From Reclinomonas americana ATCC 50394 (Eukaryota), in the NCBI GenBank assembly GCA_048213135.1, contig PS015010.1:558001-622000 (forward strand): a stretch of DNA of 64,000 bases. The letters are read 5' to 3'. The notes under the pieces were generated by a model. The model saw nothing but the letters and a program-made list of their open reading frames with translations. It did no database searches and had not been told where the DNA came from. The translations under genes were made by a program, and so were the position numbers. Positions 28,641 to 44,559 of this stretch are shown here, piece by piece. Numbering within the stretch: position 1 is the stretch's first letter; every line of letters starts with the position of its first letter.

Positions 28641-28744
28641 CGTGTTTACAGTTCGTCATTCAAAAATAAGTAAAGCCACCCATTAGGCGGAAGACTGCCG
28701 GTTCCGGTTTTTGTAGTAAAATTTAAATTTGTCAAATTTTATAT

Positions 28745-28758
28745 TTAGGTTTGCCTAA
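28745..28758. promoter_or_regulatory. DtxR/MntR-type operator candidate
   Basis: Palindrome TTAGG-TTTG-CCTAA just upstream of TATTTTTG -7 element (28764-28771). Confidence 0.6.
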
Positions 28759-28797
28759 TTTTATATTTTTGCCTGCATTTAAAATATATTTAGTCGA

Positions 28798-29997
28798 ATG
28801 AAATCAAAGCTGGTTGTAATAGCCGCCCTGCTGGTAATGGTAACCTGGGCAGTGTCCTGTTCCAAGCTGGATCCGCCTTTGCCCAAAGACGATGAAATAC
28901 TGGACGGGCCTGTGGAAGGGCTCACGTACGGGCAAAACCAAAAATTCCTGGCGGGGGATATCGCCTTTAATGACGAGATATTTACCGTACAAAAAGGCCT
29001 GGGTTCCATCTTTGTTGCTACCAGTTGCGGAAGCTGTCATGCCGGTGATGGGAAAGGGCATCCTTTTACCACCCTTACCCGGTTCGGGCAAATTGACGCC
29101 ACGGGTAATCATTTCCTGCATTTGGGAGGTCCCCAGCTTCAGAACAGGGCCATCCCGGGCTATCAGCCGGAACAGGTACCGGCGGGGGCTACTTTTTCCA
29201 GGTTTACACCCCCGGCCAATACAGGATTAGGATTTCTTGACGCGGTTACCGATGCCGATATACTCGCTATGGCTGATCCAAACGATGCCGACGGGGATGG
29301 TATCAGCGGTGTCCCCAACTGGGTTCACATGCGGCCTTATTCCAGGGAAAGGACGGCCAGTGTAACGAATAACGGGAAGTACATCGGGCGCTTTGGGAAA
29401 AAAGGCGCTACCTACGATCTCCTGCAGCAAACGGCGACCGCCTATAACCAGGATATTGGTATTACATCCTCATTTGAACCGCAGGACGTTTACTCGGGTC
29501 ATGATATCGACCCCGAAGTGTCCAATAATACGGTGCTGAACGTGGTCTTCTATCTGCAGACATTAAAAGCGCCTGTTCAACGTATGCCAAACGACGCGTC
29601 CGTAATAGCAGGGCGGCAATTGTTTACCGCCATTACCTGCAGCAAATGTCATACACCGGAATTAAAAACAGGATATTCTCCTGTACAGCCATTGTCTTAC
29701 AAAACTTTCTTTCCTTATACCGACCTGTTGCTGCATGATATGGGGCCCGGGCTTGACGATGGATATACAGAAGGTACGGCGAAAACTTCTGAGTGGCGCA
29801 CGCCTCCGTTATGGGGACTGGGATTGTCTGTGAACTCACAAGGAGGGCAGTACTTCCTCCTGCATGATGGAAGGGCAACTACCATTGAGCAGGCCATACT
29901 GTTGCATGGTGGAGAAGCCGCTGCTGCCAGGAATAAATACCAGTCACTGAACGCGGAAGACAAAAACAATCTTTTAAAATTTTTAGAAAGTTTATAA
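28798..29997 (+). CDS. Di-heme oxidoreductase (DHOR) family lipoprotein
   Basis: Lipobox WAVSC, CGSCH and CSKCH, DPNDADGDGISG, YTDLLLHDMG, WRTPPLWG, LHDGRA. Confidence 0.9.
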   Translation: MKSKLVVIAALLVMVTWAVSCSKLDPPLPKDDEILDGPVEGLTYGQNQKFLAGDIAFNDEIFTVQKGLGSIFVATSCGSCHAGDGKGHPFTTLTRFGQIDATGNHFLHLGGPQLQNRAIPGYQPEQVPAGATFSRFTPPANTGLGFLDAVTDADILAMADPNDADGDGISGVPNWVHMRPYSRERTASVTNNGKYIGRFGKKGATYDLLQQTATAYNQDIGITSSFEPQDVYSGHDIDPEVSNNTVLNVVFYLQTLKAPVQRMPNDASVIAGRQLFTAITCSKCHTPELKTGYSPVQPLSYKTFFPYTDLLLHDMGPGLDDGYTEGTAKTSEWRTPPLWGLGLSVNSQGGQYFLLHDGRATTIEQAILLHGGEAAAARNKYQSLNAEDKNNLLKFLESL

Positions 29998-30438
29998 ATG
30001 AACAGGAGAAACTTTATTAAGCAATCCTGCATCGCCTGTATTACGGGTATTGCCGCCAGTGAGCTGCTGCAAAGTTGTACCGCGACAAAATATGCGACCG
30101 GTAGTATTAAGGAAGACTATATGCTGGTGCAGCGGGAAGATTTTTTGATTGACAGGAATAAACCCGGAAACTACAGGAAATATGTAATTGCTGAGAATGA
30201 CAGGTTAAGGTTTCCTATCTGTATCTACCGTTTCACAGATACGGAATATGAAGCATTTTGGATGGAGTGCACACACAATGGCGCACAGTTGCAGGTATTC
30301 GGTGATAAGCTGCAATGCCCGGCCCATGGCAGCGAATTTAACAATAGGGGAGCTGTTCAAAGCGGCCCTGCCGACAAACCCTTAAGAAAATTCCCGGTAA
30401 CAATAGAAGGTAACCAGTTAAAAATCTCCCTGAAATGA
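29998..30438 (+). CDS. Rieske [2Fe-2S] protein with Tat-type signal
   Basis: MNRRNFIK, CTHNG..CPAHGSEF. Confidence 0.9.
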   Translation: MNRRNFIKQSCIACITGIAASELLQSCTATKYATGSIKEDYMLVQREDFLIDRNKPGNYRKYVIAENDRLRFPICIYRFTDTEYEAFWMECTHNGAQLQVFGDKLQCPAHGSEFNNRGAVQSGPADKPLRKFPVTIEGNQLKISLK

Positions 30439-31661
30439 AAATAGTTCTGGCCATAGTATTTACTTTTTTTACGTTTGGTATCAGCCAGGCCCAGATTGAT
30501 CCCTCACTGCTAAGACGTATTCCAAAAGATACTTCAAAGACAACGATGAATATGGATGCTGTGTATAACCGCCCCATGCTGGGCATCGGTAAAATACCGG
30601 TATCGGTAGGCGGGTATATGGAAACGAACTGGCTGCGTTCATCGACTGATGGAGTTAGTGAAGGGCACCAGTTTCAATTCAGGCGGCTGACGATCTTTTT
30701 GTCTTCATCCATTGGTAAGCGGTTGAAGTTTTTGAGCGAGATAGAATTTGAGGATGGGACAAAAGAAATATCAGTTGAATTTGCGGCTTTGGATGTTGAA
30801 TTCCATCCTTTGTTCAATTTACGGGGAGGCATTATCTTAAATCCTATCGGGTCATTTAACCAGAACCATGATGGTCCTAAATGGGAATTTACAGATCGCC
30901 CCGTATCAGCAACGCAATTACTGCCTGCCACCTGGAGCAATGCCGGTTTGGGTATTTACGGCAAGAAGTACACCGGTGACTGGATGCTGGGTTATGAGGC
31001 TTATCTGTCCAATGGGTTCAATAATGCGATCATCGACAATGAAGAAAATAAAACTTTTCTGGCAGCGGCCAGGGAGGATACAGAACGGTTTGAGGAAAGC
31101 AACAACGGTAAGCCTTTACTGACGGCAAAGATCGCGGCAAGGCATAAAACATACGGAGAGGTGGGTATTTCCTACATGGGTGGCATCTATAACAAATTCG
31201 AGGAAGACGGTATAAGGCTCGATGATAAGAGACGGTGTGAAGTAATTGCAATTGATTACAGCAATACGTTACCAGTACTCAACACGGTGATTACCGGTGA
31301 ATGGGCATGGGTGAAGGTAAATGTACCATCGACGTATACAGAACAATATGGCAGCAGGCAGCATGGAGGATTCGTTGACCTCGTACAACCGGTTCTGAAA
31401 CGAAAAGTATTAGGTTGGAATAACGCTGTTGTCAATCTTGCCTGCCGGTTGGAATATGTGGACTGGAATGCGGACAGGTTTAAAAGCACAGGGGGACGGA
31501 TTGCAGACGATCTCTGGAGCATTATGCCGGCGGTTAGTTTCCGGCCAACCGCACAAACCGTTTTCAGGCTGAATTACCGGTACCAGAAGCAAAGAGACCT
31601 GCTGGGTAATCCTCCCGCTGTTACCGGCGCTTTCAGTTTCGGTATATCAACTTATTTCTAA
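30435..31661 (+). CDS. Outer-membrane beta-barrel/porin-like protein
   Basis: Signal peptide, FLSEIEFE, alternating beta pattern, C-terminal ISTYF. Confidence 0.7.
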   Translation: MKIVLAIVFTFFTFGISQAQIDPSLLRRIPKDTSKTTMNMDAVYNRPMLGIGKIPVSVGGYMETNWLRSSTDGVSEGHQFQFRRLTIFLSSSIGKRLKFLSEIEFEDGTKEISVEFAALDVEFHPLFNLRGGIILNPIGSFNQNHDGPKWEFTDRPVSATQLLPATWSNAGLGIYGKKYTGDWMLGYEAYLSNGFNNAIIDNEENKTFLAAAREDTERFEESNNGKPLLTAKIAARHKTYGEVGISYMGGIYNKFEEDGIRLDDKRRCEVIAIDYSNTLPVLNTVITGEWAWVKVNVPSTYTEQYGSRQHGGFVDLVQPVLKRKVLGWNNAVVNLACRLEYVDWNADRFKSTGGRIADDLWSIMPAVSFRPTAQTVFRLNYRYQKQRDLLGNPPAVTGAFSFGISTYF

Positions 31662-31737
31662 ACCCTTAACATGACTTTGCAACAGGGTTGACATTTTTTC
31701 CGGTTTGAAATACAAAATTTGTGTTTATTTTGTTCCG

Positions 31738-32058
31738 ATGAAGCTGTTGCTGCTCATACTAAGCGGTTATTTTCTTTACCTGTCAAGCCTTCCCTGCGCT
31801 GACAGGCAGGACATAACTGCAATACAGGAGCGCACGATAACCTCCGCCCAGGGGGACCATAATCATCGTCATAAGAACGATACTTGCCCGCCATTTTGCA
31901 TTTGTACCTGTTGTGCCGCTTATGCAGTTTACCAGCAACCGGCAAAAGCAACTTCGGTAAAACTCTTTTTCAAATCCCGGAAGCATATCATTGCCAATGA
32001 TTTTTTTCTCTCACAGGAATTCTCTTCTATCTGGCAACCGCCTAAAATAGCCTGTTAA
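31738..32058 (+). CDS. DUF6660-like Cys/His-rich small protein (uORF)
   Basis: Signal-like N-terminus ending LPCAD, HNHRH, CPPFCICTCC, C-terminal SIWQPPK. Confidence 0.8.
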   Translation: MKLLLLILSGYFLYLSSLPCADRQDITAIQERTITSAQGDHNHRHKNDTCPPFCICTCCAAYAVYQQPAKATSVKLFFKSRKHIIANDFFLSQEFSSIWQPPKIAC

Positions 32059-32259
32059 CTTATTTGGATCGGTCTGGTATGACCGCAATGGTTATACTGT
32101 TTGCTCAGTCTGATGACTGTTATGCAAAAGACCAGGCAATGCCTTGTTATCAGGGTACTTACAACAATCGTTATTGTGTCTCGTTCTGGCTATCCTTATC
32201 GCGGCTGTTATCAGCCAGGTAAGGCATGCGTTTCGGCATGTAACAACTAACCATCAATC

Positions 32260-35200
32260 ATGTTAAATAAAATTATTCACTTTAGTATAAAGCACAAACT
32301 GCTTATCGGTATTATGACGGTGGCGCTCATAATATGGGGGGTATGGAGTGCTACAAAGCTCCCTGTAGATGCGGTGCCGGATATCACCAATAACCAGGTG
32401 CAGATCATTACGCTTACGCCTACGCTGGCCGCACAGGAAGCTGAACAACTGGTTACCTATCCCATTGAGCAAAGCCTCGCCAATCTTCCCGACCTGGAAG
32501 AAATGCGCTCTGTTTCCCGGTTTGGTCTGTCTGTAATCACCGTTGTTTTTCACGATGATGTTGATATCTATTTTGCCCGCCAGCTGATCAATGAAAAGCT
32601 GAAGGAGGCGGAGGAAAAAATTCCCAAAGGGATCGGGAAACCCGAACTGGCGCCTGTAAGTACAGGGCTGGGGGAGATATACCAGTATATCATACATCCT
32701 AAAAAAGGGGCAGAAGATAAGTATTCGGCTATGGATCTGAGGACCATGCAGGATTGGATCGTGGCCCGGCAGCTGTATGGTACAGCCGGGGTGGCGGAAG
32801 TCAATAGTTTTGGGGGATTATTGAAACAATATGAAGTCGCAGTCAACCCGGCAAGGCTGAAGGCCATGAATGTTACTATTGCTGAAATCTTTTCTGCCCT
32901 GGAAAAGAACAATGAAAACACAGGAGGTGCTTACATCGATAAAAAACCCAATGCCTATTTTATCCGTGGTATCGGGCTGTTGTCTTCTATGGATGATGTA
33001 GGGAATATCGTTATCAAAAAAGTCAACAATATCCCGGTTCTTGTAAAAAATGTCGCGGAGGTAAAACTGGGTAACGCCGTACGTTATGGCTCGGTTACCT
33101 ATAATGGGAAAAAGGAAGTAGTGGGCGGTATTGTCATGATGCTGAAAGGAGCGAACAGTGCCGCTGTTGTTAAAAGGGTGAAGGCTAAAATGGAGTCTAT
33201 CAAAAAAGCTTTGCCCGCCGATATTGAAATTGAGCCGTTCCTGGACCGTACCAGTCTTGTGGAAAGAGCCGTAAGTACGGTTAAAACGAACCTGATAGAA
33301 GGAGCTATTATCGTGATATTCGTCCTCGTTCTTTTCTTAGGCAACCTTCGTGCAGGCCTCATCGTAGCTTCTGCCATCCCGCTTTCAATGCTGTTTGCTT
33401 TGGGTATGATGCGTTTATTTGGAGTAAGCGCTAACCTGATGAGTTTAGGCGCAATCGATTTTGGATTAATTGTAGATGGAGCGCTGATCATTGTAGAAGC
33501 AACCATGCATCATTTGGGATTACGATCAGGTGCCGGGAAGCTCAGTCAGCAGCAAATGGATGAGGAAGTATACCAGTCTGCGGCTAAGATCCGTACCAGC
33601 GCCGCATTTGGCGAGATCATCATCCTTATTGTATACATACCGATTTTAACACTGGTGGGTATTGAAGGTAAAATGTTCAAACCTATGGCGCAAACGGTAA
33701 GTTTTGCCATCTTAGGCGCCTTACTACTTTCCCTTACCTATATTCCGATGATGTCGGCTTTATGTCTTTCAAAGAAAATTGTCCATCAACGGACCATATC
33801 AGATCGCATGATGGACTTCTTTCAAAAGGGATATGCCCCGCTGATCCGGTGGGCCATCAGGGTGAAATATTTCCTTGTTTCCGGTGCAGTAGTCTTATTA
33901 GCCATCAGCATCTTCATTTTCTCCAGGATGGGCGGTGAATTCATTCCTCAATTACAGGAAGGTGATTATGCTTTCCACTGCATTCTGCCGCAGGGCACTT
34001 CCTTATCACAGAGCATCGAAACATCCATGCAGGCAAGTCATATCATTAAATCATTTCCAGAAGTTAAAATGGTGGTAGGTAAAACCGGAAGTGCAGAGGT
34101 ACCTACCGATCCTATGCCTCCTGAAGCTACAGATCTCATTATTGTATTGAAGCCTAAGAGTGAATGGACAACCACCAAGGACTATAATGAACTGGCCTCG
34201 ATGATGATAGAGAAGCTGGAAGCCATACCGGGCGTATTCTTTGAAGCTTCACAACCGATACAGATGCGGTTTAATGAATTAATGACAGGGGTCAGGCAGG
34301 ATGTGGCCATTAAAGTATTTGGCGAAAATATTGATACGCTGGCAAGCCTGGCCCCCAAAGTCGCTAAAGTGATTCAGTCCGTTAAAGGAGCAACTGAACC
34401 ACAGGTAGAAAGAACGACCGGGCTGCCGCAGATCACCATTCAGTATGACCGGGCCCGGATAGCAGGTTATGGATTAAATATAGAAGACATCAACCATACC
34501 ATCAGTACTGCATTTGCCGGTGAAGCTGCGGGAGTTGTATTTGAAAATGAACGAAAGTTTGATTTGGTGGTACGTCTTGATAGTGCCAGCAGAACGTCTA
34601 TCGATGATGTTAGCAACCTGTTTATTGCAACCCCGGACGGGGCGCAGATCCCGCTGTCGCAGGTGGCTAATATTTCTTTTAAAGAAGGCCCTGCCCAAAT
34701 CAGCCGTGAAGATGGGAAAAGAAGGATTGTTGTTGGGTTTAATGTTAAGGGCAGAGATGTCGCCAGTGTTGTTAAAGACATACAGGAAAAACTGGAAGCC
34801 GCCAAACTCCTTTCCCCGGGCTATTACTATACCTATGGGGGCACATTTGAGAATTTACAGGAAGCGTCTGCCAGGCTGATGATAGCTGTGCCGGTTGCCC
34901 TGGCACTTATCTTTCTATTGCTTTATTTAACCTTCGGTTCTGTAAAGGAGGCAACGCTTATCTACACTGCTATTCCGATGAGTGCCATCGGTGGGGTATT
35001 TGCATTGCTGTTACGAGGGATGCCCTTCAGTATTTCAGCAGGGGTAGGTTTTATTGCGCTGTTTGGTGTGGCGGTATTAAATGGTATTGTGCTCATAAGC
35101 ACATTTAATCAATTGGAAAAAGAAGGAATGAAAGATGTCATACAGCGGGTGCTGGAAGGTACGAAAATCCGCTTGCGGCCTGTGTTGATGACTGCCACAG

Positions 35201-35388
35201 TGGCTTCATTGGGTTTTTTTCCGATGGCGCTTTCTTCAGGAGCAGGTGCCGAAGTTCAAAAACCCCTGGCTACAGTGGTTATTGGAGGCCTCATCACCGC
35301 AACATTTCTTACGTTGATAGTGCTTCCCTTACTCTATATTATTTTTTCCGGAAAACAAAAAGCAGTTAAAAATGAAACAGGTAATTAA
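32260..35388 (+). CDS. czcA: CusA/CzcA heavy-metal RND pump
   Basis: DAVPDITNNQVQ, SRFGLS, GAIDFGLIVDG, RLRPVLMTA, GAEVQKPLATVVIGG. Confidence 0.95.
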   Translation: MLNKIIHFSIKHKLLIGIMTVALIIWGVWSATKLPVDAVPDITNNQVQIITLTPTLAAQEAEQLVTYPIEQSLANLPDLEEMRSVSRFGLSVITVVFHDDVDIYFARQLINEKLKEAEEKIPKGIGKPELAPVSTGLGEIYQYIIHPKKGAEDKYSAMDLRTMQDWIVARQLYGTAGVAEVNSFGGLLKQYEVAVNPARLKAMNVTIAEIFSALEKNNENTGGAYIDKKPNAYFIRGIGLLSSMDDVGNIVIKKVNNIPVLVKNVAEVKLGNAVRYGSVTYNGKKEVVGGIVMMLKGANSAAVVKRVKAKMESIKKALPADIEIEPFLDRTSLVERAVSTVKTNLIEGAIIVIFVLVLFLGNLRAGLIVASAIPLSMLFALGMMRLFGVSANLMSLGAIDFGLIVDGALIIVEATMHHLGLRSGAGKLSQQQMDEEVYQSAAKIRTSAAFGEIIILIVYIPILTLVGIEGKMFKPMAQTVSFAILGALLLSLTYIPMMSALCLSKKIVHQRTISDRMMDFFQKGYAPLIRWAIRVKYFLVSGAVVLLAISIFIFSRMGGEFIPQLQEGDYAFHCILPQGTSLSQSIETSMQASHIIKSFPEVKMVVGKTGSAEVPTDPMPPEATDLIIVLKPKSEWTTTKDYNELASMMIEKLEAIPGVFFEASQPIQMRFNELMTGVRQDVAIKVFGENIDTLASLAPKVAKVIQSVKGATEPQVERTTGLPQITIQYDRARIAGYGLNIEDINHTISTAFAGEAAGVVFENERKFDLVVRLDSASRTSIDDVSNLFIATPDGAQIPLSQVANISFKEGPAQISREDGKRRIVVGFNVKGRDVASVVKDIQEKLEAAKLLSPGYYYTYGGTFENLQEASARLMIAVPVALALIFLLLYLTFGSVKEATLIYTAIPMSAIGGVFALLLRGMPFSISAGVGFIALFGVAVLNGIVLISTFNQLEKEGMKDVIQRVLEGTKIRLRPVLMTATVASLGFFPMALSSGAGAEVQKPLATVVIGGLITATFLTLIVLPLLYIIFSGKQKAVKNETGN

Positions 35389-36628
35389 GTCAGGATATAA
35401 TTCCAGTATTACTCACGGTACAGGACGAAGTATGTGGTCCGGTATGAAGGCCTTTTTTGTAATGATGTTTCTGCTGGGTTTATTACAGGCCGGTGCGCAA
35501 CAAAAAATAAAGATCGAAGACGCGGTAGCCCTTGGGAAAAACAACCTGCAGTATGCCATTAATAAAGAACAGGTCAATAAAAGCCAGGCACAGGTAAAAA
35601 CAGCCGGGGCACTGCCAAAGACCGGTTTATTTGCTGAAAATGAGGATATGCGCCCGGGAGACAGCAGGGGTATCCTAAAAGTTGGGGTATCTCAAAACAT
35701 GGCATGGCCGGGTTTATATAAAGCCCAGCGAAACTTGTACGGTGAACAGGTAAAATACCACCAGGCCAATGCGGCGGTGCTCGATGCAATGGTTAAAAGA
35801 GACATCAGGACGGTATATTATCAGCTCTGGTACTTACAGGATAAGCAACAGCTTTTTCTGAGACTGGATAGCATTTACCGGTCTCTGAATGATGCGGCGA
35901 TATTAAAAGTTAAGACAGGGGATAGTCCTGGTCTTGACAGTATATCAGCTAACGTCAGGTGGCGGGAACTGGAAGCATGGCTGCAACAAACCGGCAATGA
36001 TATACAAATACAACAGCAGTTAATGATGCAATTGCTTAATACTGCTGATACGCTGTTGCCGCTAAAACAATCGCTGGAAAAACTCCCCGTTCCCTTTGCT
36101 GTTGATACTTTACACCCGCTGCTGCTTTTGCAGCAACAGCATATCAATATTGCAAATGCGGGTATTAACGTTGCCAGGAATGAGAACAGGCCTGAATTTT
36201 CAGGGCGCTTCTTTAGTCAGCGGCTGTATGGTATGCGTGATCCTTATACCGGCTTTTCAGTTACTGCGGCTTTCCCTTTATTAGGTATGGGGGCTTATAA
36301 AAATAAAATTCAGACGGCCAAAGCTGAAGTGGCCATGCAACAAAAGCAGTTGGAATATGAAAAGCAGGTTTTGAATACACAGCAATCACAAATGCGAAGG
36401 GAAGTGGAGAAGAACGGAAGAATGCTGCAGTTCTATGAATCAACAGGCTTAAAGCAGGCGGAGAAAATAATTAAGGCCTCGTCGCTGGCTTACCGGGCAG
36501 GCGAGATCAGTTTTGCAGAGTTGTCGCAATTCTTAACACAGGCCATAGATATTCAACGTAATTATCTCGATAACCTGAATACGTATAATCAATCAGTCAT
36601 TCAATACAATTACTTCATCAATCAATAA
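35372..36628 (+). CDS. TolC/CzcC outer-membrane factor (possibly fused to CzcA)
   Basis: Helical OEP pattern, YRAGEISF; signal peptide begins ~24 aa into ORF. Confidence 0.88.
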   Translation: MKQVIKSGYNSSITHGTGRSMWSGMKAFFVMMFLLGLLQAGAQQKIKIEDAVALGKNNLQYAINKEQVNKSQAQVKTAGALPKTGLFAENEDMRPGDSRGILKVGVSQNMAWPGLYKAQRNLYGEQVKYHQANAAVLDAMVKRDIRTVYYQLWYLQDKQQLFLRLDSIYRSLNDAAILKVKTGDSPGLDSISANVRWRELEAWLQQTGNDIQIQQQLMMQLLNTADTLLPLKQSLEKLPVPFAVDTLHPLLLLQQQHINIANAGINVARNENRPEFSGRFFSQRLYGMRDPYTGFSVTAAFPLLGMGAYKNKIQTAKAEVAMQQKQLEYEKQVLNTQQSQMRREVEKNGRMLQFYESTGLKQAEKIIKASSLAYRAGEISFAELSQFLTQAIDIQRNYLDNLNTYNQSVIQYNYFINQ

Positions 36629-36636
36629 TAACAGCA

Positions 36637-37902
36637 ATGAAGAAAATTATTTTAGCAGCGATGATAGGCTCTGCTTCTCTTTTGTTCGTTTCCTGCGGTG
36701 GTAATGCACCTGCCGGGGAAACAAAAACTGAAGCACAGGGGCATGAAGATGAACATGAAAATCCTAACACGGCAACACTTACGGAAGAGCAGATGAAAAG
36801 TATTGGTGTCGTATTGGGAACAGTTGAAGATAAACAGTTAACCTCCTCGCTAAAGGCCAACGGCATATTGCAGGTGCCTAATCAAAATAAGGCCAGTGTA
36901 AACTCTGTTTATAGTGGTGTCATTAAGTCTTTATTGGTGCAACCCGGAAATGTGGTAAGAAAGGGGCAGACCATCGCAACGATCAGTAATCCCGACTTCA
37001 TCCGTTCACAAAGCGACTACTTAAGTGTAATGGCAAGGATCGGTTTGGCTGAACTGGAAGTAAAAAGACAAAGGGAATTGAATGCCGGGAATGCGGGGGC
37101 TTTAAAAAACCTCCAGTCAGCCGAAACGGAATTGAGAACCTTACGTACTGCAAAGTCCACCCTGGAGCAGCAGATCCGCCTCATGGGAATTAATCCTGCC
37201 CGGCTTTCCAATGGTAAACTGATCTCGGTACTTGCAGTTACCAGTCCTATTAATGGCGTGGTAAGTAATGTATTGGTTAAAATGGGAAGTTATGTTGACC
37301 TGTCTACCCCGGTAGCGGAAATTGTAGATAATAGCCAGCTCCACCTTGACCTGTATGTTTATGAAAAAGATCTGCCTAAGCTAAAGAACAACCAGGCCAT
37401 TCATTTTACATTGACCAATAATCCCGGTAAGGAGTATGATGCACAGATATTCTCTCTGGGCTCATCATTTGAGGGCGAAAGCAAGGCTGTAACGGTTCAT
37501 GCCAAAGTGCAGGGAGATAAAACCGGCCTGATTGATGGTATGAATATCACTGCGGTAATCAGTTTGGATAAAGCTACAGTTCCAGCGGTTCCAACAGAGG
37601 CGATCGTAAGTATCCAGGGGCAGGATTACATTTTTATGCAAACGGAAGAACATACGGAAACGGAGCACAAAGAAGGGGCCGACAGCATTAAACATGAAGA
37701 AAAACATAAAGCTGAAGAAAAGCAGGGGCATCATGAAAGCGGCATCACTTTCGAAAGAATACCGGTAGCTAAAGGAACAACAGATGTAGGATATACCGAG
37801 ATAACCTTATTAAAGGAAATTCCGAAGGACGCCAAAATTGTGGTTAAAGGCGCCTTTTTTGTGATGGCTAAAATGACCAATTCAGGAGAACACGAACATT
37901 AA
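36637..37902 (+). CDS. czcB: RND periplasmic adaptor lipoprotein
   Basis: Lipobox FVSC, His/Glu-rich tracts, VRKGQ, SPINGVV. Confidence 0.92.
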   Translation: MKKIILAAMIGSASLLFVSCGGNAPAGETKTEAQGHEDEHENPNTATLTEEQMKSIGVVLGTVEDKQLTSSLKANGILQVPNQNKASVNSVYSGVIKSLLVQPGNVVRKGQTIATISNPDFIRSQSDYLSVMARIGLAELEVKRQRELNAGNAGALKNLQSAETELRTLRTAKSTLEQQIRLMGINPARLSNGKLISVLAVTSPINGVVSNVLVKMGSYVDLSTPVAEIVDNSQLHLDLYVYEKDLPKLKNNQAIHFTLTNNPGKEYDAQIFSLGSSFEGESKAVTVHAKVQGDKTGLIDGMNITAVISLDKATVPAVPTEAIVSIQGQDYIFMQTEEHTETEHKEGADSIKHEEKHKAEEKQGHHESGITFERIPVAKGTTDVGYTEITLLKEIPKDAKIVVKGAFFVMAKMTNSGEHEH

Positions 37903-37912
37903 ATTTTACAGT

Positions 37913-38284
37913 ATGAATTTTAATACAAAAATGCCCGGCCCGCTAAAGCCCTTTTATCATAAGGAACTGGAAAAGGCGGAGAGGGCATTTGAAAAAATGC
38001 ATTACCAGGTTAGCTGGCGGCATCTCGAAAGGGCGCATATATTGGCACAGCCTTATCCATATCAGCATACGGTGGTTCATTGGAAAATGCTCCGTTTCGG
38101 GATCAAAATTAAAAACCGGAAGGAAGTAATTGGCCAGGTACCGAGATTGCTGGTGGGCGGAGTAAAGTCCTTCGTGGGTACTATACCGGTAGGTAATACT
38201 GGTGGAGCGGATGTACCTCCGTTGAAGTCTATGGAAATTCCGGGTGATATCATAATAATCATTAACAATACGAAAACAAAGTAG
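37913..38284 (+). CDS. DUF3703 family protein
   Basis: WRHLERAHILAQ, H..VHWKML, PVGNTGG. Confidence 0.85.
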   Translation: MNFNTKMPGPLKPFYHKELEKAERAFEKMHYQVSWRHLERAHILAQPYPYQHTVVHWKMLRFGIKIKNRKEVIGQVPRLLVGGVKSFVGTIPVGNTGGADVPPLKSMEIPGDIIIIINNTKTK

Positions 38285-38417: not shown

Positions 38418-38451
38418 AGGCTGGAGGCAGAAATGCCTGCAGCCTTTTTTT
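38418..38451 (+). terminator. Terminator-like hairpin 20 nt before the ATPase start
   Basis: AGGCTGGAGGCA-GAAA-TGCCTGCAGCCT-TTTTTT. Confidence 0.75.
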
Positions 38452-38471
38452 ATATTATTAACATTTATACA

Positions 38472-40514
38472 ATGGCACATCAACATATTTACGATAAAAA
38501 TGGTAAGCAGTTATGCTGCACGCAGGAAGAAAAAATCTATGTGAGAGCAAATGCAAAAGAGTTACTGCCGGGGCATCATGCCGGGGATGGGCATAATCAC
38601 GATCATGAACACCGTGATGACGATGGTCATGATCATTCAGGCAGTACAGAGCGTCCGTTCGAATTATTCCTTCCTGCAATCATCTCTTTAATCTTATTGC
38701 TTGCAGGCATTGTTTTTGACAACCTTTTCCCGCAAGCCTGGTTTACAGGCTGGGTGCGTATTGTATGGTATGTTGCCGCATACATGCCGGTCGGACTTCC
38801 TGTTATCAGGGAAGCTTTTCAGAGTATTTCAAACGGTGAGGTATTTTCCGAATTCCTGTTAATGAGTATTGCCACCATCGGGGCATTTGTTATAGCCGAA
38901 TACCCGGAAGGTGTAGCTGTAATGTTGTTTTACGCTGTAGGAGAAGTATTTCAGACGCTGGCAGTTTCAAGAGCTAAAAATAACATCAAAGCACTGCTGG
39001 ATCAGCGACCTGATGAAGTTACACTGCTCCGGGATAATCAACCTCAAAATGTTAAGGCGGAAAACGCAAACATCGGCGATATTATACAATTAAAACCTGG
39101 TGAGAAGCTGGCCCTGGACGGAGAGTTGTTATCCGAAACGGCTTCTTTCAATACCGCCGCGCTTACAGGCGAAAGTAAGCCAGACACAAAAAGCAAGGGT
39201 GAAACTGTACTGGCAGGAATGATTAACCTTAACACCGTTGCACAGGTAAAGATTACTACAGCTTATGCGGATAGCAAACTCAGTAAAATCCTGGAATTGG
39301 TTCAGAATGCTACAGCACAAAAAGCGCCCACGGAATTATTCATACGCAAATTCGCGAAGGTATACACACCAATAGTTGTTTTGCTGGCTGTTGCCATTTG
39401 TTTGCTTCCCTATTTTTTTGTGAGTGATTATCAATTCAAAGAATGGGTTTACAGGGCATTGATATTTTTGGTGATTTCCTGCCCCTGTGCATTGGTGATC
39501 TCTATTCCTTTGGGATATTTTGGCGGCATAGGCGCGGCGAGCCGTAATGGCATTCTGTTTAAAGGAAGTAATTTCCTGGACAAAATGGCGGTCATACAAA
39601 ATGTGGTGATGGACAAAACGGGAACTATGACCGAAGGTGTTTTTAAAGTTCAGGAAGTGATCATCAAGCCTGAACTGGATAAGAATGAGATACTGCAGAT
39701 GGTGAACGCGCTGGAAAGCCAAAGTACGCACCCGGTGGCAACGGCTATCCATCAATACGTTGGGGAAGTCAACACTTCGGTTAAGCTGGAGCATACAGAA
39801 GAGATCGCTGGTTACGGCTTAAGGGCAAATATTAACGGGAAGGAATTATTGGTGGGTAATTTCAAATTGATGGACAGGTTGGGAGTTAGTTATGATGTCG
39901 ATCCTTCAGCAATTGTTTATACTGTCATTGCCATAGCATACAATAAACAGTTTGCGGGATATATCACTATCGCTGACAGCATTAAGGAAGATGCAAAGCT
40001 GGCAGTTGAAATGCTGCACCAGTTAAAGGTAAAAGCGACTATGCTTAGCGGTGATAAAACTACAGTTGTGAAATATGTTGCTGAACAATTGGGGATCGAT
40101 AACGCATTTGGTGATCTGCTGCCGGAAGATAAAGTAAATAAGGTTAAAGAGATAAAAGCTAAGAACGAAAGCGTTGCTTTTGTGGGCGATGGGGTAAATG
40201 ACGCACCCGTAATTGCTTTAAGTGATGCCGGCATTGCCATGGGTGGCCTGGGAAGTGATGCAACTATTGAAACAGCAGACATTGTTATCCAGGATGACCG
40301 GCCTTCTAAGATACCCATGGCTATTAATATAGGTAAGACAACCAAAAAGATAGTGTGGCAAAATATTACATTAGCCTTTGTGGTTAAAGGTGTTGTTTTG
40401 CTATTGGGTGCCGGGGGGCTGGCTACGATGTGGGAAGCTGTATTTGCAGATGTAGGAGTGGCATTGCTGGCTATACTGAACGCGGTAAGGATACAAAGAA
40501 TGAAGTTCAGTTAA
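38472..40514 (+). CDS. Zn/Cd-type P1B ATPase (CadA/ZntA-like)
   Basis: CC + His-rich N-terminus, TGES, CPC, DKTGT, HP, GDGVNDAP. Confidence 0.95.
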   Translation: MAHQHIYDKNGKQLCCTQEEKIYVRANAKELLPGHHAGDGHNHDHEHRDDDGHDHSGSTERPFELFLPAIISLILLLAGIVFDNLFPQAWFTGWVRIVWYVAAYMPVGLPVIREAFQSISNGEVFSEFLLMSIATIGAFVIAEYPEGVAVMLFYAVGEVFQTLAVSRAKNNIKALLDQRPDEVTLLRDNQPQNVKAENANIGDIIQLKPGEKLALDGELLSETASFNTAALTGESKPDTKSKGETVLAGMINLNTVAQVKITTAYADSKLSKILELVQNATAQKAPTELFIRKFAKVYTPIVVLLAVAICLLPYFFVSDYQFKEWVYRALIFLVISCPCALVISIPLGYFGGIGAASRNGILFKGSNFLDKMAVIQNVVMDKTGTMTEGVFKVQEVIIKPELDKNEILQMVNALESQSTHPVATAIHQYVGEVNTSVKLEHTEEIAGYGLRANINGKELLVGNFKLMDRLGVSYDVDPSAIVYTVIAIAYNKQFAGYITIADSIKEDAKLAVEMLHQLKVKATMLSGDKTTVVKYVAEQLGIDNAFGDLLPEDKVNKVKEIKAKNESVAFVGDGVNDAPVIALSDAGIAMGGLGSDATIETADIVIQDDRPSKIPMAINIGKTTKKIVWQNITLAFVVKGVVLLLGAGGLATMWEAVFADVGVALLAILNAVRIQRMKFS

Positions 40515-40599: not shown

Positions 40600-40914
40600 G
40601 TGTCCTTGAGGATTACCGGGTTCATATTATCAGTTTACCTGCTTTTTAGTATCATGGTACCCTGCAGTTTCCTTGACAATTGCCGCGAGGAAGGAGAAGG
40701 GCAGGAACATCATGAAAAAGAAAGTGAGCATGAGAAAGGCTGTACAGGTTGTACCCCTTTCTCTGTTTGTGCAACCTGTGGTTTCATTGATAACAGCACG
40801 ACTATTCAAATTCAGGTTCCTGAAACTTACTGTACGAAATCTTATACTGAACATTTACCAGGCTCCTTATCATCTTTTTCTTCTATTCTGCTGCGCCCTC
40901 CCTGTACCGTTTAA
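40600..40914 (+). CDS. Second DUF6660-like Cys/His-rich uORF
   Basis: Signal-like N-terminus ending VPC, EHHEKESEHE, CTGCTPFSVCATC, C-terminal SILLRPPCTV. Confidence 0.7.
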   Translation: MSLRITGFILSVYLLFSIMVPCSFLDNCREEGEGQEHHEKESEHEKGCTGCTPFSVCATCGFIDNSTTIQIQVPETYCTKSYTEHLPGSLSSFSSILLRPPCTV

Positions 40915-40959: not shown

Positions 40960-43116
40960 ATGAAACGAATACTCATGATGGGTATAATAGTACTGTGTGC
41001 TATTGTAACCCATGCGCAGCATACCCTCAGGTTATCAGTGCAGGGAGGAGAAGGAAAAGCTCCGCTGGCAGGCGCTACCGCAACTATTGAAACGCTGGGT
41101 AAAACGGCGGTTGCGGACAGCAACGGGATTATTACTTTTGAAAATCTTCCCGCAGGGGATTACAAAATAAAGTTTTCTCACGTTGGTATGGAAGAGCAGG
41201 AAGTATCTGTCGCCGTTCCCCAACCCGGAACAGCCGCTTTTGCCATAACAATGACTGCCGGGGAAGAAGAGGAAGAAGAAGTGATTGTAACAGCTACACG
41301 TATCAGCAGGTCTATTGCAGACCTGCCCACAAGGGTGGAGACTATTTCGGGGGAGGAACTCACCGAAAAAGGAAACATGAAACCCGGTGACATCAGGATG
41401 ATGCTGAACGAAAGTACAGGTATACAAACGCAACAAACTTCCGCGACATCTAATAACTCTTCGATCAGGATACAGGGCCTGGACGGAAGATATACGCAGA
41501 TACTGAAGGATGGTTTTCCGCTGTACGCGGGTTTCTCCGGTGGGCTTAGCCTGATGCAGATCGCACCATTGGATTTGAAACAGGTTGAAGTAATCAAAGG
41601 TTCTTCATCAACCTTATATGGCGGCGGCGCTATTTCGGGCCTGGTCAACCTCGTGTCGAAAGTCCCGGGTGAAATAAGAGAACTGAGTTTCCTGGCTAAT
41701 GTAACATCCGCGAGGGGATTGGACCTGAGCGCTTTCTACAGCCAGAAATTCAGGAAGATCGGCGTTACCGTTTTTGGTTCCCGTAATACCGGCAGTGCCT
41801 ATGATCCGGCAGATATTGGTTTAACAGCCATTCCAAAATTTGAAAGATATACCATTAATCCGCGTTTGTTCTTTTATGGTAAAAAGACGAATGCCAATAT
41901 TGGCGTCAGCTATATTACTGAGAACAGGACCGGCGGCAGCGTAGATTATATCAAGAACGGAACTGCAGGCTATTTTGAAAAGAATAATACAGACCGTTTA
42001 ACGGCGCAAACTGATATAAGGCATAAGCTCAACGACAAAACCAACCTGCAGCTCAAAAGCAGCTATTCTCATTTTAACAGGCTTATCAGTGTTCCCGCCT
42101 ATATGTTTGAGGGTACCCAACAGTCATCTTATTCTGAATTGACTATTACACACGACAGGGAGAAGACCTACTGGATAGCCGGGATTAACTTTCTTACAGA
42201 TGATTTTAGGGAAGAACAACACAATACAGTTGCGCTGAGGAATTATCACTACAACACATTTGGCGTATTTGTACAAAATACCTGGACGCCATCAACCCGT
42301 TTTTCACTGGAAACAGGTTTAAGGGGAGATTATGTAGCGCAATACGGATTTGAACTGCTGCCCCGTATTTCAGCGATGCTGAAAGCCACACCAAAGCTTA
42401 CTATTCGCTTGGGTGGTGGTTTGGGTTACAAAACACCTACTGTATTCAATGAAGAAGCGGAAAAGACACAATTCCAGGCCATATTGCCCATCAACCAGCA
42501 AACAGCCAGGAATGAAAGATCTGTTGGTGCCAACCTCGATTTCAACTACCGTACCCGGTTAGGTGAAGTGGGTTTTGCTTTTAACCAGTTGTTCTTCTAT
42601 ACCCGTTTGAACAAACCGCTGGTGTTGAACGCTGCAACCGGCGGAGGGTTCGAATTCCTGAATACAACCGGTTTTATCGATACAAAAGGATGGGAAACCA
42701 ACCTGCGGTTCACTTACCATAATTTCAAACTCTTTATCGGTTATACTTATGCAGATGTGAACAGCCGTTTCAGCGGGGCAAAGAACTGGTTCCCGCTCAC
42801 TGCGAGGCACAGGCTCAATAATGTACTGATGTATGAAATAGAAGAGAAACTGAAAGTTGGTCTGGAAGCTTACTATTTCAGCCCGCAAAAACTCAGTGAT
42901 GGCGCAAAAGGGAAATCATACTGGATAAGTGGTTTAATGGCGGAAAAGTTATGGAAGAAATTCTCTGTGTACATTAATTTCGAAAATATATTCGATACCC
43001 GGCAGACAAGGTTTGATACGATTTACACCGGGAGTATTGCGAATCCAGCCTTCAGGGATATTTATGCGCCTGTTGATGGCTTTGTGGTTAACGGAGGAAT
43101 TAAAGTCAAATTATAG
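40960..43116 (+). CDS. TonB-dependent receptor
   Basis: N-terminal carboxypeptidase-like domain, EVIVTATR, RIQGLDGRYTQIL, VEVIKGSSSTLYGGGAISG. Confidence 0.93.
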   Translation: MKRILMMGIIVLCAIVTHAQHTLRLSVQGGEGKAPLAGATATIETLGKTAVADSNGIITFENLPAGDYKIKFSHVGMEEQEVSVAVPQPGTAAFAITMTAGEEEEEEVIVTATRISRSIADLPTRVETISGEELTEKGNMKPGDIRMMLNESTGIQTQQTSATSNNSSIRIQGLDGRYTQILKDGFPLYAGFSGGLSLMQIAPLDLKQVEVIKGSSSTLYGGGAISGLVNLVSKVPGEIRELSFLANVTSARGLDLSAFYSQKFRKIGVTVFGSRNTGSAYDPADIGLTAIPKFERYTINPRLFFYGKKTNANIGVSYITENRTGGSVDYIKNGTAGYFEKNNTDRLTAQTDIRHKLNDKTNLQLKSSYSHFNRLISVPAYMFEGTQQSSYSELTITHDREKTYWIAGINFLTDDFREEQHNTVALRNYHYNTFGVFVQNTWTPSTRFSLETGLRGDYVAQYGFELLPRISAMLKATPKLTIRLGGGLGYKTPTVFNEEAEKTQFQAILPINQQTARNERSVGANLDFNYRTRLGEVGFAFNQLFFYTRLNKPLVLNAATGGGFEFLNTTGFIDTKGWETNLRFTYHNFKLFIGYTYADVNSRFSGAKNWFPLTARHRLNNVLMYEIEEKLKVGLEAYYFSPQKLSDGAKGKSYWISGLMAEKLWKKFSVYINFENIFDTRQTRFDTIYTGSIANPAFRDIYAPVDGFVVNGGIKVKL

Positions 43117-44187: not shown

Positions 44188-44559
44188 ATGGAAGTCAGTG
44201 ACATACAGAACGGGAGGCAGTGCACACAGTATATACAGCCTGTGCGTGATGTGCTGGATATCATCAGCGGTAAGTGGAAACTGCCCATCCTCATCGCTCT
44301 CTCCCTCAATAACCGCCGGTTCAAGGACCTGCAGCGCACTATTGATGGCATCAGTCCGCGTATGCTGTCGAAGGAACTCCGCGACCTGGAGGCCAACCAG
44401 CTCATCAGCCGTACGGTGTATGATACGGTGCCGGTAAGCGTTGAGTACGCCCTTACACCTTATGGCCGGTCGCTGGACAATGTGATTGTTGCCATGCGGG
44501 AATGGGGAAAAAAGCACAGGAATAAATTATTCGCGAAAGAAAAGCCGGCGGCTGTATAA
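44188..44559 (+). CDS. HxlR-family winged-helix regulator
   Basis: N-terminal Cys, GKWKLPIL, ISPRMLSKELRDLE, VEYALTPYG. Confidence 0.93.
   Translation: MEVSDIQNGRQCTQYIQPVRDVLDIISGKWKLPILIALSLNNRRFKDLQRTIDGISPRMLSKELRDLEANQLISRTVYDTVPVSVEYALTPYGRSLDNVIVAMREWGKKHRNKLFAKEKPAAV

Follow-up and report, generated by a model that had tools for sequence, protein, structure and literature searches.

A DUF6660 gene upstream of a czc efflux operon: a candidate metal-sensing leader peptide of Bacteroidota

The sensing of metal at the post-transcriptional level through a nascent chain that is exported has so far been shown only in Proteobacteria, for the leader peptides CutF and CruR, both of the family DUF2946. 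Here, we analyze a 64,000-nucleotide (nt) stretch of contig PS015010.1 (positions 558,001 to 622,000 of the forward strand; assembly GCA_048213135.1, deposited as Reclinomonas americana ATCC 50394), hereafter the window, in which an open reading frame (ORF) of 106 amino acids (aa) at 31738..32058 on the plus strand precedes a heavy-metal efflux operon. The ORF belongs to DUF6660 (Pfam PF20365), a family that so far bears a DUF label only. From sequence conservation and by analogy, and with somewhat better than even confidence, we read DUF6660 proteins as cis-acting metal-sensing leader peptides of the CutF/CruR type, a Bacteroidota counterpart of these systems.

CutF of Rhodobacter capsulatus has a Sec signal, a cysteine motif (CxxxC) about 45 aa before a proline-rich motif at the C terminus, and a multicopper oxidase as its target (PMC9973294). 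[quoted passage not shown] CruR of Bordetella pertussis is encoded by the first gene of its operon, 5' of a TonB-dependent transporter and separated from it by 162 nt, and the 45 residues between its CXXC and RAPP motifs are conserved within 1 to 2 residues (PMC9426467). Here copper relieves the arrest and Rho then terminates transcription, the result being repression, and regulation is independent of the signal sequence of CruR itself (PMC9426467). In vitro, CruR has been shown to arrest with Pro-Pro occupying the P and A sites (PMC12992588). [quoted passage not shown] It had also expected a logic inverted relative to that of CruR, for which CutF provides a proven precedent (PMC9973294).

Two surveys bear on Bacteroidota. 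Ozturk et al. (2023, mBio, PMC9973294) list 5334 "CutF-like" proteins, 19% of them from Bacteroidota, with OEP, ACR_tran, HlyD_D23, and TonB-like neighbors; ACR_tran ranks among the commonest neighbor classes, and Bacteroidota among the major phyla. Of the papers listed on CutF in Bacteroidota, only this one was relevant. Since these include Bacteroidota proteins encoded upstream of resistance-nodulation-division (RND) genes, the class is not new in kind; for the Bacteroidota group, the description of the list reports neither a motif nor a spacing nor any RNA analysis. The window protein falls within the CutF-like definition: it is shorter than 150 aa, two consecutive prolines (PP) fall among its last 15 residues, and the next gene on the same strand lies no more than 1000 nt downstream. 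A 2025 survey of arrest peptides ending in RAPP or RGPP, in its account of copper-related upstream ORFs, names many lineages but not Bacteroidota (PMC12992588).

Conserved motifs, spacing, and genomic position of DUF6660

The 106-aa ORF scores 38.4 bits against the Pfam DUF6660 model (gathering cutoff, 27), and no NCBIfam model matches it. The start of its homologues agrees with ATG 31738 and not with TTG 31705. The translation contains every element that the initial annotation had reported, namely a hydrophobic N terminus, HNHRH, CPPFCICTCC, and SIWQPPKIAC. Specifically, M-K and about 16 hydrophobic residues (hydrophobic segment, residues 2 to 18) are followed by P19-C20-A-D22, a nearly invariant P19-C20-x-D22 pattern in the family (31741..31803, plus strand, as are all leader features). 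The His-rich HNHRH (residues 41 to 45; 31858..31872) contains an H-x-H that is semi-conserved in DUF6660, and the Cys cluster C50-P-P-F-C54-I-C56-T-C58-C59 (31885..31914) is a presumed metal-binding site. A 38-residue linker then leads to I98-W-Q-P101-P102-K-I-A-C and the stop codon, and I98-W-Q-P101-P102 (32029..32043), four residues before the stop, is a candidate ribosome-pausing motif. AlphaFold2, given a 150-sequence alignment, predicts a helix at residues 2 to 17 and coil for the remainder (mean predicted local distance difference test [pLDDT], 70; predicted template modeling score [pTM], 0.32). A proline at -1 (P19 before C20) leaves no canonical lipobox. All of the four other assemblies of this region have the synonymous change T>C at 31884, and in two of them the His-rich stretch differs by N42T.

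With the protein alone as the query, a word-indexed search gave only one relative, and a profile search was used instead. At an E value of ≤1e-3, a 26-sequence profile retrieved 3348 representative clusters, which share no more than 50% identity with one another, and at ≤1e-10 it retrieved 1986. All 26 aligned relatives match Pfam DUF6660, and a Flavobacterium plasmid homologue is labeled "DUF6660 family protein" in RefSeq. The Pfam score and the 3348 homologous clusters together identify the 106-aa ORF as a real gene rather than a chance reading frame.

Motif and spacing statistics were taken from the best 150 of the 3348 representatives, which are likewise at most 50% identical to each other. 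C20, C50, C59, P101, and P102 are invariant, and conservation is 90% or higher at P19, D22, P52, F53, C54, C56, C58, I98, W99, and Q100. Between the Cys cluster and PP, the linker has no conserved residue, yet its length is held. The family consensus is thus an N-terminal hydrophobic helix, PC.D, CxPFCxCxCC, a linker, and [ILV][WF]QPP 2 to 4 residues before the stop. PP lies within the last 15 aa in 148 of the 150 sequences, the other two having aberrant C termini; among the 148, the number of residues after PP is 2 to 4 in 139, and the C terminus reads IWQPP[KRQ] in 125. The first Cys of the cluster lies 49 to 55 aa before PP, with a mode of 51, in the 134 sequences that fit the motif pattern. 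In the window protein, C59 and P101 are 41 residues apart, compared with a published value of 45 for CutF and CruR. The initial annotation had named the Cys-cluster-to-PP distance and the class of the downstream gene as properties to compare among homologues; the distance is held in these sequences, and the downstream gene is a metal-homeostasis gene in most of the 89 loci described below.

The third positions of the I-W-Q-P-P codons vary freely among relatives, indicating selection on the peptide rather than on the RNA, and all 3348 clusters end at the same profile position. PP is also found in the last 15 aa at every locus of the genome sample described below (29/29 and 60/60), down to an E value of 1e-4. 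In the weakest members, the motif drifts to FWHPP, LLQPP, IWLPP, or HFRPP, and across the family the residue directly before PP can be Q, H, R, K, S, L, or D.

In an even species sample of Bacteroidota, 78 of 401 genomes contained DUF6660, with 98 matches. We examined 89 of these, comprising 29 returned loci (30 minus that of G001 itself, a duplicate of L004) and 60 lower-scoring ones; the sample omitted hits that were partial or at contig edges as well as a second copy in G351, and the tandem copy in L070 was not counted separately. The downstream gene was defined as the first same-strand ORF that begins with ATG and is at least 100 aa long or open-ended, with the opposite strand left out. 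Because such start calls are approximate, so are the spacer lengths. The gene 3' of DUF6660 encoded a CzcA-like pump (ACR_tran) in 55 loci, a TonB-dependent receptor in 19, an outer-membrane efflux protein (OEP) in 3, and a DUF3347 protein in 3. The rest were a weak HMA match, a response regulator (gap, 286 nt), and an ArsR-type helix-turn-helix protein (gap, 396 nt), one each, and six genes of no family. A metal-homeostasis gene is thus directly 3' of and codirectional with DUF6660 in 80/89 sampled loci. A separate set of related loci, of which 25 distinct ones out of 31 were scanned, gave ACR_tran in 22, a TonB receptor in 2, and none in 1.

In the 25-locus set, the genes 5' of DUF6660 were diverse (integrase, transposases, MFS, multicopper oxidase, and SNF2 helicase), with the exception of a recurring gene for a 408-aa protein (71% identity between the window and L007). 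As the 5' genes vary while the class of the 3' gene recurs, the DUF6660 gene appears to travel with its 3' neighbor. Divergent members precede DUF3347 genes in L128, L129, and L135, OEP genes in L099, L101, and L118, and a small ORF with a weak HMA match in L062, so the module is not bound to a single transporter type. Copy number varies as well. One Galbibacter genome carries 5 to 6 copies, a Galbibacter copy is split over two frames (L040/L041, G002:C2:38366-38669), and a tandem pair of DUF6660 genes stands before a single czcA in L070 (G099:C9:121693-122671). It was also observed that the "CusA/CzcA" coding sequence on the Flavobacterium plasmid is 1452 aa long (L073:4001-8359) and that the downstream ORF of many other relatives exceeds 1250 aa and continues past the locus boundary, both of which point to a fusion of the pump and OEP genes there.

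RNA between the leader stop and the next start codon

Minimum-energy folds of loci with 60- to 140-nt spacers showed a long-range helix. Its 5' arm runs from the codons that follow PP through the stop codon to about 10 nt past it, and its 3' arm lies just 5' of the next ATG. RNAalifold applied to a MAFFT alignment of 14 short spacers returned 0 pairs, since the alignment had placed the arms out of register. We therefore turned to duplex energies, with shuffles and cross-locus pairs as controls. These were computed for a first set of 31 loci with spacers of 55 to 140 nt and for a held-out set, namely the 46 of 60 later loci with spacers of 35 to 140 nt.

In the first set, the duplex reached -10 kcal/mol or better in 28/31 loci, and its median length was 17 bp. 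Counted from the end of the PP codons, the 5' arm occupied nt +3 to +21; counted from the downstream ATG, the 3' arm spanned -27 to -7.5. In 19/31 loci, no more than 10 of 200 dinucleotide shuffles equaled the locus's own duplex. Own pairs averaged -12.2 kcal/mol, compared with -6.25 kcal/mol for cross-locus pairs whose arms differed by more than 35%; the own pair beat every distant cross pair in 17/31 loci and ranked in the best 10% in 23/31, the arms falling into 14 sequence classes. Each of the positions from -5 to +9 around the stop was occupied by 3 to 6 canonical pair types, which are canonical by construction, having been taken from optimized duplexes. In the held-out set, 29/46 loci reached -10 kcal/mol, at most 5 of 100 shuffles were as good in 21/46 (about 2 to 3 expected by chance), and both held with the stop codon inside the arm in 20/46. 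The 5% shuffle threshold was beaten in 40 of the 77 short-spacer loci of both sets. Across short-spacer loci, then, the helix between stop region and start region covaries.

The spacer of the window, 201 nt between the leader ORF and czcA (32059..32259, plus strand), belongs with a longer class and was aligned with relatives that have 188- to 250-nt spacers. The initial annotation had called it structured on account of its inverted repeats. ATGCCTT/AAGGCAT and CTGGCT/AGCCAG are indeed present, and GGTATGACC/GGTTATACT pairs, with G-U pairs, in the minimum-energy fold; inverted repeats of 6 to 7 nt are unremarkable by themselves. The spacer folds somewhat better than its shuffles (z, -2.72; 1/200 as good). 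A search of 31500-32500 against Rfam gave no match at an E value of ≤1, and a terminator scan found no terminator-like site in the spacer. The GGTATGACC/GGTTATACT hairpin (32076..32098, plus strand) is the counterpart of one that is conserved in long-spacer relatives, where RNAalifold on 11 sequences gave 10 consensus pairs, 3 of them with compensatory change. The description as structured therefore stands for the repeats and this one conserved hairpin; for the most part, however, the spacer is the relic of a frame-split ORF, and it lacks the helix of the short-spacer loci. Just 5' of the hairpin, base 32062, 4 nt past the leader stop, is changed from A to T in all four other assemblies, with a T inserted behind it in three.

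The relic concerns a conserved 48-aa ORF that long-spacer relatives encode between DUF6660 and czcA and that ends about 10 nt before the czcA ATG. It has a basic N terminus, a single hydrophobic, putatively membrane-spanning helix, and a C-terminal H-x-x-x-H. The family comprises 47 clusters, nearly all of exactly 48 aa, and is without a Pfam model; intact copies occur, for example, at L003:4390-4536 and L008:4392-4538, and divergent copies occur in further sampled loci. Its size and position recall small RND-associated proteins such as AcrZ, which we take to be a candidate likeness only. In most intact relatives, the AUG of the small ORF is folded into a small hairpin. Pairing of the arm after PP with the small-ORF start was not consistent in 12 long-spacer loci.

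In the window, a profile of 10 intact copies matched in two frames, at profile positions 8 to 25 (E value, 7e-4) and 24 to 47 (E value, 4e-5), over 32113..32266 on the plus strand. The first part runs from ATG 32113, and the second, in the +1 frame, ends at 32266 and overlaps the czcA ATG. Contigs from four other runs in four studies show no indel in 32113-32266, which means that the frame split is real in this lineage and not an assembly error. This analysis suggests that the window copy is either decaying or restarting at an internal TTG (32144).

Genes around the leader in the window

An operon-like run of genes, all on the plus strand, begins 201 nt 3' of the leader ORF. Its first gene was taken as czcA by the initial annotation, an assignment that TIGR00914 supports at 1209 bits: it encodes a 1042-aa heavy-metal RND pump of the CzcA/CusA family (32260..35388). 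There follow an OEP (35372..36628; PF02321), the gene of which overlaps czcA by 17 nt (35372-35388), a periplasmic adaptor of the CusB/HlyD type (36637..37902; PF16576 and TIGR01730), a DUF3703 protein (37913-38284; 145 bits), and a heavy-metal P-type ATPase of the Cd/Zn (IB2) type (38433..40514; TIGR01512, 479 bits against a cutoff of 313.5). Next comes a second DUF6660-like ORF (40600..40914), of 104 aa with a GTG start and ending in LLRPPCTV. At 24.9 bits it is below the Pfam cutoff of 27, but it aligns with the invariant Cys and PP residues, with one cluster Cys replaced, and on this alignment it is a divergent DUF6660 relative. A TonB-dependent receptor with a CarboxypepD_reg N-terminal domain by Pfam (40960..43116) lies 45 nt downstream of it, and this 45-nt spacer showed no structure (z, 0.09).

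The initial annotation had also remarked on the lack of a metal-sensing transcription factor, and a scan of ORFs from 25.4 to 43.1 kb likewise gave none. The closest regulators lie at 44188-44559, an HxlR gene beside an NmrA-family gene, and beyond 50 kb, a sigma-54 response regulator/kinase pair.

Directly upstream of the leader (28798-31661) are genes for a di-heme oxidoreductase (DHOR), a Rieske protein, and the 408-aa protein mentioned above, which matches no Pfam family and has a signal-like N terminus and a C-terminal Phe. The 408-aa gene is also found 5' of DUF6660 in L002, L007, L010, and L017, and DHOR or CCP_MauG genes flank the DUF6660 loci L030 and L031. TAnnTTTG is the Bacteroidota -7 promoter motif. 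Three such motifs at 28724-28771 raise the possibility that the whole run from DHOR onward is one operon, and there is no exact copy in 31662-31737; the motif is not enriched in the window (40 copies against 50 expected) and is thus of little informative value.

Readings of the DUF6660 module and comparison with known systems

If DUF6660 is a cis-acting metal-sensing leader, its nascent chain would be exported during synthesis, and the ribosome would reach PP about 42 to 51 residues after the Cys cluster, at which point the cluster would be just clear of the ribosome and translocon. Metal bound by the emerged cluster may then alter the dwell time of the ribosome on PP. A paused ribosome would sit on the last leader codons and the stop codon, a stretch that would otherwise pair with the region from -27 to -7 before the next ATG in loci with 35- to 140-nt spacers, and by occupying the 5' arm of the helix it would unmask the start of the pump or receptor gene. 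Such unmasking would matter in Bacteroidota, where initiation generally depends on an unstructured leader and is not known to depend on a Shine-Dalgarno site. A ribosome held in the arrest geometry of CruR, with the P and A sites occupied by Pro-Pro, would cover roughly the first 10 nt past PP and would free the nucleotides nearest the downstream ATG. By analogy, the short-spacer helix fits the mechanism demonstrated for CutF and CruR. In the window, which is without this helix, the leader could be coupled to czcA by Rho polarity as in CruR or by a relay through the small ORF. We put forward more tentatively, at somewhat less than even confidence, a specific form of this proposal: that DUF6660 is an independent, non-homologous arrest leader with a new motif, [ILV][WF]QPP, whose metal-loaded chain holds the ribosome and unzips the helix that masks the start, the 48-aa ORF being a relay or pump subunit in a second architecture, that of the window's lineage among others.

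Several observations weigh against a cis-acting leader. We infer export from the hydrophobic N terminus and the AlphaFold2 helix at residues 2 to 17. The helix is not significant in 37/77 short-spacer loci. In the window, 161 of 200 shuffles paired as well between the leader stop region and the czcA start (39/200 when pairing anywhere in the spacer was allowed), and long-spacer loci in general are without stop-region pairing. Plain translational coupling, with neither pausing nor metal sensing, would also result from a helix across the stop, and the fixed spacing and the seven conserved Cys and Asp residues would also fit a small folded metal-binding domain of a kind that AlphaFold2 cannot model when the metal is missing. 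That one module stands before efflux pumps as well as TonB receptors is hard to reconcile with a single regulatory logic. None of 26 DUF6660 members matched DUF2946 (PF11162), even at an E value of ≤10, and hhalign of DUF6660 against a thin, two-sequence Ralstonia profile of DUF2946 gave a probability of 0.14% and an E value of 0.41, with only the His/Cys motif aligned. Finally, we found no paper naming DUF6660 in the literature searched, and WQPP is not a described arrest motif, with no relevant paper among the matches listed.

The strongest alternative, although in our judgment an unlikely one, is that DUF6660 is a mature, trans-acting accessory of the RND pump or receptor, such as a membrane-anchored or periplasmic metal chaperone, a buffer, or a CzcI-like sensor, with WQPP as an interaction or sorting motif. 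Seven conserved potential ligands (C20, D22, and the five clustered Cys) adjoining a membrane helix would suit such a protein, as would the conserved length of the linker, the pLDDT of 74 to 89 that AlphaFold2 assigns to residues 61 to 90, the CzcI clusters among the neighbors in protein language-model space, and the genomes that keep 5 to 6 or tandem copies. Against this, AlphaFold2 yields no secondary structure beyond the N-terminal helix, and the sequence of the linker is not conserved. The partner class shifts among RND pump, TonB receptor, OEP, and DUF3347, yet the 5' position and the distance from PP to the stop remain constant, and a purely trans-acting protein would have no need of a helix over its last codons and stop that covaries with the next start region. 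The accessory and cis-leader roles are not mutually exclusive.

Plain translational coupling appears still less probable. Here, terminating ribosomes would open the helix, the response to metal would be set at another point such as the promoter, and the protein's own function would account for PP and the Cys residues. The stop codon does lie within the 5' arm in 28/28 helices of the first set. When the 5' window was widened, 12/29 helices extended upstream of PP and hence are not strictly anchored to it, but 17/29 still began 0 to 4 nt after the PP codons although an earlier start was allowed. Regulators are found nearby in some loci (ArsR-type helix-turn-helix, response regulator, "transcriptional repressor"). 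Coupling would not, however, require an invariant PP or its tight distance of 2 to 4 residues from the stop, and the layout equals that of proven arrest leaders. As for an RNA-only leader whose ORF is not expressed as protein, the amino-acid-level conservation with free synonymous change, the common end point of the 3348 clusters, and the lack of an Rfam match make it highly improbable.

Taken together, the observations of the initial annotation are confirmed and its interpretation is partly supported. Its proposal of a Bacteroidota analogue of CruR gains support from the invariant PP, the fixed spacing, the position 5' of metal genes, and the helix in many relatives, but the class is already in print as CutF-like proteins, and homology to the CruR family was not detectable by Pfam scan or by the thin profile comparison. 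We did not find in print the DUF6660 motif set with its ruler-like spacing, the covarying stop-codon helix, or the interposed 48-aa ORF. DUF2946 itself was not found above its family cutoff in three Bacteroidota genomes and a Pseudomonas plasmid, one of the genomes giving a weak hit (E value, 0.08); a Ralstonia megaplasmid carries two copies, from which only 5 close relatives were found. When DUF6660 clusters are excluded, the language-model neighbors are DUF2946 and CzcI clusters (0.94 to 0.95), which we treat as a lead only.

Should the cis-leader reading of DUF6660 be true, the principle of sensing metal through an exported nascent chain would have been reinvented with another peptide motif and another metal site, and in a phylum whose translation initiation differs. 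Control of this kind would extend to heavy-metal efflux and TonB receptors in about one-fifth of the sampled Bacteroidota species (78/401 genomes), and it would account for these czc loci being often without a dedicated regulator. The invariant WQPP would offer a new sequence for structural work on ribosome arrest, and the covarying helix over the stop codon supplies a defined RNA element that can be mutated to test the model.

CzcI of Cupriavidus metallidurans differs from DUF6660 in having no C-terminal Pro motif, and no match to Pfam CzcI was listed for the window protein. Membership among the RAPP/RGPP arrest peptides was considered and rejected, I-W-Q-P-P being without the defining Arg-Ala/Gly. 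With that group (ApdA/ApdP and SecM-like peptides), as it is described, DUF6660 shares a C-terminal X-X-P-P beside the stop, an N terminus that is putatively exported in DUF6660, and TonB or copper genes downstream, and it could fill the Bacteroidota gap in the 2025 survey. With CruR it shares the PP motif near the C terminus, a held Cys-PP spacing, a long intergenic region (201 nt in the window), and, for the second DUF6660-like ORF, a TonB-type target, the arrest motif being RAPP in CruR and WQPP in DUF6660. CutF is likewise small, with an N-terminal hydrophobic or export segment, a Cys motif about 45 aa before a proline-rich motif, and a metal-detoxification gene downstream; short-spacer DUF6660 loci also have a helix analogous to the CutF stem-loop. 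DUF6660 departs from CutF in its [ILV][WF]QPP motif, its five-Cys cluster with PC.D, and its RND pump or TonB receptor target. By analogy, the logic of CutF, in which metal induces, fits an efflux pump: a longer pause would allow the downstream gene to be translated.

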